A stretch of DNA of 64,000 nt from Eledone cirrhosa (Eukaryota), in the NCBI GenBank assembly GCA_964016885.1, contig OZ024763.1, positions 27,466,001-27,530,000 of the forward strand. Direction: 5' to 3'. Position 1 is the first letter of the stretch. The number at the start of each line of letters is the position of its first letter. Both the position numbers and the translations under genes were made by a program. Shown piece after piece: positions 39,803-45,932 of the stretch. Below the pieces are notes generated by a model. That model searched no databases. It was not told where the DNA came from and saw only the letters and a list, made by a program, of their open reading frames with translations.

Positions 39803-39898
39803 ATGTTTCTTTATTAGCCACAGGGGCACAAAAGAAGGGGACAAATACAAAGGAGGAAGTTTACATACAATAAAAACGTGTAAAATGTTATCACAAAT
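39803..39898 (-). mobile_element. ~95-bp extreme 3' fragment of a related Tx1 subfamily, between two (GATA)n tracts
   Basis: Aligns to 39933-40030 and 34146-34215 (TTTCTTTATT..CCA..GGCA..AAAAG..GGGACAA.TACAAAGG..GAGTTTACA). Confidence 0.85.
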
Positions 39899-39933
<35 letters not shown>

Positions 39934-40147
39934 TTCTTTATTTACCATAAAGGCATAAAAAGAAGGGACAAATACAAAGGGGGAGTTTACATATAATCGA
40001 GTAAAAAGGGTGTAACATGAAAATAATCGAAAATAACCTCAAAAGGGAGGGGACGTGATGGGGGTTGCACACACCCCCGAAAAAGTGTGCAATCCTTTGC
40101 CCGGGGAGCACATGGAGAAGGTGCTCCCCTCTCCTTTACTTCTTTAC

Positions 40148-43100
40148 CTACAGGATGGTATACAGAGAAGGCCCATTTACACGAGCCATTCTCGCCACTA
40201 TCACCCACCTTTCATAAAACTGCCTGTGGCCAAGCACCTCTCTCTCCATTCTTATCCTTCTTCCGAAGTGATATCGGAAGAAGTAGACCAGACTATGGCC
40301 AGAGAGGAAGTTGCCTGACCTCAGACCTTTCAATCGTGTCCACCAAACAACCTCTTTCAACATGGCTATTACGCACAGAAAAACCGCCTTTGCTTCCTTT
40401 GTGAAGAGGGGAGGCGGTTTGATTGTCATCACGGACTCGGCGGTCAATTTAATCGGCGCCACCCGCGACAGCAGTTGTTCGGCGTAGCCCCACAGATCAG
40501 CCACGCCCGGACATTGCACCAATGCGTGCGCCACGGTTTCTTCGTGATGCACGCATCTAGGGCAAATCTTTTTTGAGGGATCCCTGCCCGGGCGCCCGTG
40601 TCTGTAGAGCCTCTCTCGAACGGGTAGAGCCCCTCGGTAGCACTGCCAGGCCAGTGACTTCTGGAAGTTGTCCATTGGTCCTGGGCCGAAAGTCCTACCG
40701 AACAGGCTGGCCAGTTCGTCTTCCTCCATGTCCAGCGACTCTCCAAGGGTGTCATCGCCCCTGCTAGCCACCAGCCCTCTATAGAATGATGAGGTGGATT
40801 CTCCACCGATGGCCCGGCCCGCTTGCCAGAGAGCCCTGAGCGCCTGAGCACACTCAGTGTGCCAGTCTCCCAGTTTTCCGGATCTTTGCTTGACCCAGGA
40901 CTGTAGCTCGGTGAGTGAGACGAGTCTCGGAAAGGCTCGTTTCACGAACGGAGCCCACACCGGTTGACCAGTGAGGAATACCTGTAGGTGCCGTAGCCTT
41001 AATGCGTGCCTACGCATCATCAACCACGGCATCCCCAGCCCTCCTTTCGAAGGTTGTTGGCAGCAGATGGATCTTCTCACCATAGGAGGACGCTTCTTCC
41101 AAAGAAATTGGAAGAGCATGCGTTCCATGGTGGTGAGTGTTTCCTTAGGGCAAGGCACGACAGTCAGGCGGTAGTAAGTGACGGACGCTATGTAAATGTT
41201 CGCCACCTCCGCCCGGCCTTTTAGGGACAGCTTACACTTGGCCCATTTCTGGGTTAGTGCAAACACCTTGTTCGTAACCTCGTTCCAGTTCTTTTCCACC
41301 TGGAGGTCCGGTCCAAACCAGACCCCAAGCAACTTTACCGGGCCCTCCGTCCAGTGTCCGACGACACCGTCAGGAGGCATCGGTTTGCCTCTCCACGTTC
41401 CGAGTTGCAGCCCGATGGATTTTTCCCGGTTCAGTTTCGCTCCTGACAACCTTTCGTACTCCTCCAGTAAGGTACCGATCGCCTCGATCTCCGAGTCGGT
41501 TGATACCATTACTGTTACGTCATCGGCGTAGGCCGACACCGCTTTGCTCAATCCTGGTTCCAGGGGGATACCCTGCAACAACTCCAACTTCCTCAGTAAA
41601 GGCTCGAGAGTCAATACGTACAGAAGGGAGGAGAGAGGGCACCCCTGTCGAATGGATCGTGTGATTTCGAACGGCTTCGAAAGGTAGCCGTTCACCTTGA
41701 TCCTAGAACAGATGTGGTTGCTATGTAGGGCAGTGATCCAGCCTCTGAAAACAGGACCGAACCCAGCCGCCGCTAGCACCGCATCCAGGTAACCATGGTC
41801 GACCCTATCGAAGGCCTTAGACTGATCCAAGTTGATCAGGGCCCCACCGAAGCCGGGTTTGTTGCCAACCCTCTCTATGATGTATCGCATGAGGTGGAGG
41901 TTATCGTGAATGGACCTGAATGGGATAGCACATGTCTGCGCATCTCCCACCAGGCCACCCACGACAAGCGCCAACCTCTTTGCTAACACCTTGGCCAAAA
42001 TCTTTAACTCTGTGTTTAGCAGGGTTATGGGCCGAAAATTATTTATACTATCCCCCTTGTTCTCGTCCTTCCTCACCAGCGTGACTACGCCCTTGGCTAC
42101 AGAACAAGGAATTCTCCCGTTCTGCTGCCAATTGCAGTAGACCGCTTCGAGGAGTTCGGAGAAGAAGACCGGCATTGCTAAATAAAGTTCGTAAGGTATA
42201 CCATCGAGACCTGGAGATTTGCGTCTGCTGCATTGGCTCAGCGCATCTCCGATCTCATCAGCCGAGATTGGTCCCTCGCAGGACTCTGCCTCTTTGTTCG
42301 AGAGACGCGGCAGGCCGTCGAGGTATGGACCGAAATCCACGCCCCGGCCCGGACCCTCGCCTCCCCCGAACAATCGGGCAAAGTGCTTTTGAAAGGCCTC
42401 GCACATCTGCTTAGGCTCCCGGATCACTCGTCCATCTTCGTCTTGCAACGACCGGATGGTGGATCGATTTCCACTTTTAGCTTCTGTCACGCGGGCCCAT
42501 CCAACGGCTTTGGCCCCCTCATTACCTAGAGCACGTATTTTACTTCGAATGACGCAGCCTTCATGCTTTGCATCGAAAAACTGGTTCAAGGCCGTCCTCG
42601 ATGCCAGCACTCTGGCCACATCTTCGCTCTTGATTGCCTCTTCTAATTTACCTGTTAATTCTTTCTCGTTTCTATTCCTATTGGCAGCTAACATCTTGCT
42701 ATAACTTATTGATTCTGTTCTAATCTCTCTTTTGAGAGATGCCCACCATCGGTTGTTGACGATTGCACCCGTCAACCTCTCCTTAACTAATCTGCTAATC
42801 CGGTTTCTGTAAGTCTCTTTTGCCGGTAAAGACAAATTAAGTTTCCAGTAACCGGGACCCTGTCTATGTGTTTTCTCGAGATTGACCACGCAGGTCACTA
42901 ATTTGTGATCCGTGTAGCCAACCGTGCGCATTTCTGGACAGCTTAATATGTCCCTATCCTTACTTCTAACTAAGAATCTATCTAAGTACGATCTAGATTG
43001 ACCACTGTGGTTTCTCCAAGTCCAGGTAGGCACAGTTGGAAAATCTAGTCGATATCTATCGACCAAGTTAAAACGGTCGAGTAACCCCTTGAGGCTGTTA

Positions 43101-45496: not shown

Positions 45497-45726
45497 TTCT
45501 GTTAGACGACTGAAATTTTTTACACAAAATTTTTTAAAACAGGTTTTTCACCTCTAGGAGGGGTAAAGATGAGCTGACCCACCGCCTGACAGTTCAGACG
45601 GAGGGTCAAGCTACACAATTGTATCAAAATTAAGTTTGAACTCACAAAATTTCCTCAATAAATTTGAACAAAACTTCTGTGCGAAGTGAATGACATCCAC
45701 ACTGTAGAACAGACGACAGCTAGATT

Positions 45727-45777
<51 letters not shown>

Positions 45778-45932
45778 TAGTACAAAAAGTCCGGTGATAC
45801 GAGAGCCGGTAAATCCTTCGTAATTTGGATGCGGGTAATTATCCAAGGGCAGCCCGGCAGGTGGGCCCCATAAACGTTAAATGATATTTAAAAAAAACAC
45901 ATATATACATACACCCCCTACACACATATCTC

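Follow-up and report, generated by a model that had tools for sequence, protein, structure and literature searches.

A full-length Tx1-like retrotransposon of Eledone cirrhosa and its association with GATA microsatellites

When a retrotransposon is flanked on both sides by the same microsatellite, does its family seek that repeat, or did the repeat arise in some other way? A locus of Eledone cirrhosa (contig OZ024763.1, positions 27,466,001 to 27,530,000) raises this question. The window, i.e. the whole stretch of 64,000 nucleotides (nt) analyzed here, is animal DNA rich in microsatellites (36.5% GC, 253 tandem-repeat rows), and it contains a full-length long interspersed nuclear element (LINE) of 5.8 kb on the minus strand with a GC content of 48.6%. 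Its two open reading frames (ORFs) are both open and are separated by a spacer of 33 nt. A preliminary description of this DNA had regarded the element as a potentially active member of the Tx1 clade that is specific for GATA repeats. We arrive at a narrower answer, to which we assign a probability of roughly 55%: the element is an intact and young L1/Tx1-type LINE, and its family likely prefers (GATA)n/(TATC)n tracts and near variants of them, nicking GATA and priming through RNA–DNA pairing. The element, the related copies and their flanking repeats (UTR, untranslated region; RT, reverse transcriptase) are as follows.

45730..45777, plus strand: (GATA)12, equal to (TATC)12 in the element sense, bordering the full-length copy at its 5′ junction
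45497..45729, minus strand: 5′ UTR of ~233 nt; the true 5′ end is uncertain within 45721–45729, half of which is in repeat phase
43619..45496, minus strand: ORF1, 625 aa; RRM-like region, CCHC knuckle (residue 311), and C-terminal half of low complexity, rich in P/T/N/Q
40148..43585, minus strand: ORF2, 1145 aa, with an APE endonuclease (23–227), an RT (512–755, YADD at 686) and a C-terminal CCHC zinc finger (1008–1025)
39934..40147, minus strand: 3′ UTR of 214 nt, terminating in AATAAAGAAA
39899..39933, plus strand: (GATA)8 (39899–39930) plus GAT, shared by the full-length copy as its 3′ tract and by the stub as its 5′ junction
39806..39898, minus strand: 93-bp stub from the 3′ end of a sister-subfamily copy, with 82% identity over the final 66 nt
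39732..39803, plus strand: 3′ flank of the stub, a compound microsatellite (TA)n(GA)n(GATA)4
34847..34884, plus strand: 5′ junction of the truncated relative, consisting of (GACA)3 and imperfect GATA/GACA tetramers, with no clean GATA tract
34149..34846, minus strand: 5′-truncated relative, with the still-open end of ORF2 and the 3′ UTR
34089..34146, plus strand: 3′ flank of the truncated relative, (GATA)6 that grades into imperfect GACA/GGAT tetramers

Searches of the window by BLASTN and with a profile built from the three 3′ ends detected just two further copies, the stub and the 5′-truncated relative. Same-strand GATA is present at 3/3 3′ ends and at 2/3 5′ junctions (n = 3 copies), the remaining 5′ junction being (GACA)3. 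The full-length copy and the stub are each enclosed by one repeat in one orientation. In the truncated relative, the repeat on the 5′ side is a one-letter variant, and the tract of TCTG/TCTA/TCCA units in which this copy lies is near-cognate and is oriented like those of the GATA copies. The 3′ tract of the full-length copy is also the 5′ tract of the stub and was counted as one observation; whichever of the two came first, there were two separate insertions in same-strand GATA. Same-strand (GATA)≥3 with 10 nt on either side covers 122 of the 56,998 bases outside the copies (~0.2%). The probability that at least two of three 5′ junctions fall in GATA is 1.4e-5, or 9e-5 if landing is confined to microsatellite-adjacent DNA; the window itself was picked for its GATA pattern, which weakens both figures. 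GATA-type tracts of at least three units number 13 in the window, and four of them touch copies.

The truncated relative is 80% identical to the full-length copy over 523 aligned nt (80% at the protein level over 136 codons), and the differences are distributed over the codon positions as 17/15/43. Because the three copies are ~20% apart from each other, the GATA association covers, as judged from these sequences, at least two subfamilies. The preliminary description had placed GATA next to both relatives, which holds for the stub but, in the truncated relative, only on the 3′ side, its 5′ junction being (GACA)3. Of the GATA-specific family that it proposed, the association beyond chance in the window is retained, while specificity is not established by three copies, one of them with a GACA 5′ junction.

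In the element sense, the 3′ end of the full-length copy reads AATAAAGAAA followed directly by (TCTA)n, and no poly(A) was found there. The stub and the truncated relative both terminate in AATAAA(A)GAAACA, which is followed by (TATC)n, and the last ~55 nt of the 3′ UTR is kept in all three copies. A 3′-terminal hairpin in the three copies did not exceed shuffled sequences (z-scores of −0.89 to 0.25). Several structural claims of the preliminary description were borne out: both ORFs are open (625 and 1145 aa), the UTRs are short (5′, ~233 nt; 3′, 214 nt), GATA lies on both flanks, as (GATA)12 and (GATA)8 on the same strand, the 3′ end runs into a repeat rather than poly(A), and the stub lies inside the repeat tract at the 3′ end of the full-length copy, with (GATA)8 as its own 5′ junction.

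The element has the features of a non-LTR (long terminal repeat) retrotransposon, namely two ORFs, the absence of LTRs, and 5′-truncated relatives with a common 3′ end. ORF2 matched the Pfam families PF03372 and PF00078 above the cut-off, and the catalytic motifs of the APE and RT domains are in place. Its zinc finger matched PF13966 (zf-RVT) with an E value of 9.8e-6 and 26.6 bits, which is below the cut-off of 27.5, and the Pfam scan of ORF2 gave no RNase H match. A C-terminal zf-RVT zinc finger without RNase H is typical of Tx1. A profile of 13 relatives (alignment A1) matched human L1 ORF2p with an E value of 1e-117 and R2 proteins with 1e-36; because it favors the former, the element belongs, on these scores, to the L1 group of APE-type non-LTR retrotransposons. 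ORF1 gave no match in the Pfam scan and no homologue in a homologue search. Its Atlas neighbors are CCHC/RRM/ZCCHC3-like (0.87–0.91), which serves as a lead only, and residues 115–324 match ORF1 of the tandem-array relatives described below (E ~1e-9). An ORF1 with an RRM-like domain and a CCHC knuckle is unlike the mammalian-type ORF1 and is not exclusive to Tx1; such an ORF1 has been called consistent with the Tx1 clade (PMC5203782). The assignment to the Tx1 clade comes from the architecture and not from a tree with labeled Tx1 references, and the term “Tx1-like” is used in this sense.

The nearest named ORF2 proteins are from Argonauta hians (GAB1597330.1, GAB1601854.1, GAB1599396.1, and GAB1606090.1), with identities of 58–63%. 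They are annotated as hypothetical only, and they group with the element in the RT tree (support, 100/99). This tree has 32 rows, one too-short row having been dropped, and consists of unnamed, Argonauta, coral and plant sequences and one fungal ‘TX1’-named protein on a long branch. No relative was found in viral contigs, either by protein or by the 3′-UTR motif. Among metagenome contigs there were 54 loci, none of which is a close relative and none of which has a GATA tract of at least 14 nt; the inspected loci with a higher local score are fragmentary.

A set of 41 overlapping loci from a bin titled ‘uncultured Arenicella sp.’ contains ORF2 relatives with 40–43% identity in head-to-tail arrays, and in the RT tree these are sister to the octopod branch (100/99). 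The arrays (L055–L092 and L095–L097; contigs CAXXMW01...) consist of intact Tx1-like LINEs with a period of ~6.5–6.85 kb and look like animal DNA inside a bacterial bin. Each copy terminates in a hairpin-like stretch and AATAAA and is joined straight to the 5′ end of the following copy; new copies of this lineage seem to enter at the head of existing ones. In 39/39 distinct junction segments the next copy starts directly after AATAAA, with no tail or spacer repeat, and two or more GATA units were found in 0/39 of them (61 motif matches). No GATA tract of three units occurs in 386,169 bases. Within what was covered, these data suggest that only the octopod branch is associated with GATA. Because the sister lineage stops at AATAAA without a repeat tail, they also suggest, indirectly and by analogy, that the sequence after AATAAA in the octopod family may be mainly target. 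Two further loci (L093 and L094), from bins titled Metamycoplasmataceae and Anaerolineae, contain an L1/Tx1-type ORF2 of 27–31% identity beside animal-like microsatellites, which suggests that these bins also contain host DNA.

If insertion proceeds by target-primed reverse transcription, the primer must be the plus strand. In this geometry, the nick would be made in the GATA strand, which is rich in purines, and the 3′-OH generated there would prime cDNA synthesis. The RNA would read through a few of the downstream (UCUA)n units and anneal to the nicked strand, and this pairing would set the register and favor GATA tracts. Pairing of LINE RNA 3′ ends with the nicked strand has been reported for several LINEs (PMC6007223). 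Candidates for the 3′ end of the transcript are (UCUA)n, AAUAAAGAAA, or poly(A). Every insertion would divide a tract and either duplicate some of its units or add further ones, so that GATA is present on the two sides and the 3′ side offers a new target. A landing site made at the element's own 3′ end would explain why one tract is common to the full-length copy and the stub. The preference may come from the endonuclease, from RNA–DNA pairing, or from both.

The abundance of the family was evaluated by mapping the sequencing runs X2, X5, X6, and X20 (4 of the 22 listed) to positions 39911–45749, with the repeat ends (39911–39946 and 45718–45749) excluded. Part of the element is present in 18/22 listed runs, none of them listed as an RNA run, and five of them contain at least half of its words (best, 0.80). 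Run X2 yielded 15,545 contigs, and the depth climbs towards the 3′ end. A contig of the 5′ UTR (45612–45717) in this run has no differences from the window and a depth of 2603.8; the other X2 pieces among the eight listed have depths of 9.5–55 (five pieces), 215 and 3566. Because the depth of the 5′-UTR contig is far above that of the five other pieces, it suggests near-identical 5′ ends in the order of a hundred, depth not being a copy number. The loose contig ends listed (24 of 1,730) are all internal and apparently derive from diverged subfamilies, with no junction or empty site among them, and one X6 contig has 41 unaligned letters on the 3′ side. Synonymous changes account for 27 of the 40 variants listed, with 1,038 more variants besides. 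On this evidence the family looks high-copy and young, and the full-length copy fits a young member of a family under purifying selection.

Several observations weigh against a preference for GATA or against the role of this copy in it. Just three copies were examined, in a single window chosen for the pattern, and the sole clearly truncated copy outside the cluster has (GACA)3 at its 5′ junction. Nine GATA-type tracts, out of 13 in total, are without any copy, and a search for a target-site duplication separable from the repeat itself found none. At 9/40 listed sites, three of them non-synonymous, at least 90% of the X2 depth has another letter than the window; because of this disagreement, the full-length copy may not be an active master. 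In the hairpin loop of the endonuclease, 9 residues separate the anchors, as they also do in two close relatives; this is the L1 length, and most of the sister group has 11. A single-sequence fold of the endonuclease was set aside because its mean pLDDT was 34. The loop was described as having 11 residues in Tx1L and TRAS1 and 9 in L1 (PMC1950540). Loop length is, however, not diagnostic of specificity, because the site-specific R1Bm has a shorter loop. Finally, in both the stub and the truncated copy, a CA that does not belong to the repeat separates GAAA from the tract, and some of the 3′ tract may therefore be an element-encoded tail.

Alternatively, GATA might be nothing but such an element-encoded 3′ tail, with the 5′ GATA carried along with the RNA from the donor locus or, in a genome rich in microsatellites, present by coincidence. 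The tract is found at 3/3 3′ ends and begins a few bases past AATAAA, repeat tails are frequent in LINEs (PMC6007223, PMC9115989), and 38.7% of the bases outside the copies have a microsatellite no more than 10 nt away. The RTE, CR1, and L2 elements are comparable in that their 3′ ends are microsatellite-like and not poly(A), and RNA–DNA pairing at the nick has been proposed for them; they differ in belonging to other clades, and in the accessible text their microhomology comprises one base or a few, and they are not described as repeat-targeted (PMC6007223). A tail by itself would require the full-length copy to abut the stub exactly via a GATA tract and, in addition, to have GATA at its 5′ end, although same-strand GATA makes up just 0.55% of microsatellite-adjacent DNA, and the sister lineage has no repeat tail (0/39). 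We regard this explanation as unlikely. Somewhat less unlikely, yet still doubtful, is a looser taste, similar to that of Kibi and Koshi, for TC-containing microsatellites with a pyrimidine/purine skew, such as (TC)n, (TCTA)n, (TCTG)n, and (TCCA)n, in which GATA would be one accepted target of several and the pure (TATC)n at the 3′ end a self-propagated tail. The truncated copy has (TCTG)3 on its 5′ side and TCTG/TCCA variants after its (TATC)6, the 3′ tract of the stub continues into (TC)n, and crocodilian Tx1 families take (TTCC)n or (TTTC)n (PMC4494074). A 7-nt stretch by the 5′ junction of the truncated copy recurs past the pure tract and was noted by eye as a possible duplication, indistinguishable from a chance match. 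Such a taste does not easily account for the 5′ tract of the full-length copy, where a pure (TATC)12 gives way to unique sequence, nor for the long and common (TC)n/(GA)n arrays of the window, inside which no 5′ junction lies. An assembly artifact, in which contigs ending in GATA repeats were linked through the repeat, seems highly improbable. The window does contain a 200-N gap, and no read or contig among those listed spans the element or bridges its junctions; nevertheless, a mis-join could alter the sequence past the tracts but not the contact of the element ends with the repeat, and the tracts (16–48 nt) are shorter than a read.

The preference for GATA and its near variants can be compared with known systems. 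The target repeats of Kibi and Koshi are written on the element sense strand. These Tx1-clade elements of teleost fish target (TC)n and (TTC)n, respectively (PMC4494074, PMC3812793). The present element resembles them as an APE-type LINE associated with a microsatellite, and its element-sense repeat is pyrimidine-rich and contains TC; it differs in the repeat unit (TATC/GATA) and in its octopod host, the comparison being by description only. Eight crocodilian families (Tx1-1_Crp, Tx1-5_Crp, Tx1-6_Crp, Tx1-1_Gav, and Tx1-2/3/5/8_AMi) prefer (TTCC)n or (TTTC)n (PMC4494074). They likewise have a tetranucleotide target, which is called a preference and not a strict specificity; the tetramer is a different one, and the repeat here has A on the sense strand and the host is an invertebrate. 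In the same paper, microsatellite targeting is defined by the occurrence of one repeat type in >20% of the flanks across a family (PMC4494074). A review lists ACAY, AC, TC, TTC, and TAA as targets and calls the mechanism of repeat targeting not well understood (PMC3812793), and Togen targets (TG)n (PMC4640811). The accessible parts of PMC9115989, PMC10294476, and PMC8967140 give no Tx1 target.

Octopus vulgaris has 80 annotated L1-Tx1 families, of which 13 are recently active, with 421 insertions amounting to 2,288,644 bp (PMC13282606). These elements are of the same class, with a mean length of ~5.4 kb compared with 5.8 kb here, and the present family may be one of the 80 or closely related to them; the text parts and the supplement of that paper that were examined contain no target-site analysis (PMC13282606). 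The preliminary description knew of no GATA-specific family, and no GATA-targeting Tx1 element was found in the literature searched, which consisted mostly of open papers; the supplements of PMC4494074, Repbase, and Dfam lie outside that search and could list one, so the family may already be catalogued in Repbase or Dfam. The target repeat (GATA) and the host are probably new, and the kind of element, a microsatellite-seeking LINE, is already known.

If the preference is true, GATA would be added to the few microsatellites known as targets of APE-type LINEs, and cephalopods to the hosts of repeat-targeting Tx1 elements; it would not be a new class of mechanism. An intact copy together with a tail-less sister lineage that has a longer loop would allow a direct test of whether the endonuclease or RNA-tail pairing causes the targeting. 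Octopod GATA microsatellite markers may often have retrotransposon-derived flanks in common. A more far-reaching scenario, which we put forward as speculation, is an active GATA-specific octopod Tx1 lineage that lands in such tracts, rebuilds them at its 3′ end, and so seeds and lengthens GATA microsatellites genome-wide in a self-feeding loop. It would have switched its target from that of a tail-less, head-to-tail sister, and its shorter endonuclease loop would be offset by RNA–DNA pairing.

Another LINE in the window is also associated with a repeat. The 5′-truncated LINE end at 11392–12528 on the minus strand has an open frame with a zinc finger, a restriction-like endonuclease motif and a weak R2 match. 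This fragment is bordered by (TAA)16 on the 5′ side and by (TAA)n on the 3′ side, and fits the known TAA-targeting Dong/R4 type, a label taken from a literature list and not from a tree. This restriction-like endonuclease-type LINE is an example of clean repeat targeting of a truncated copy, whereas the truncated copy of the GATA family is less clean. A tRNA-like stretch at 46146–46215 on the minus strand (Rfam RF00005, 30.5 bits; cut-off, 29) was considered as an insertion target of the GATA-associated element and rejected; it is 370 nt from the 5′ end of the element and is probably the head of a short interspersed nuclear element (SINE). Tandem arrays of 97–108-bp units occur at 18770–20526, 20709–22866, 575–1483, and 13560–14416, among them arrays of 17 and 20.7 copies of 104 bp with 95–98% match, and several of them have a B-box-like motif, which suggests SINE-derived satellites. 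A 33-bp unit is repeated 18 times at 28428–29032 (94% match) and is apparently a piece of a SINE-like repeat present elsewhere in the window.

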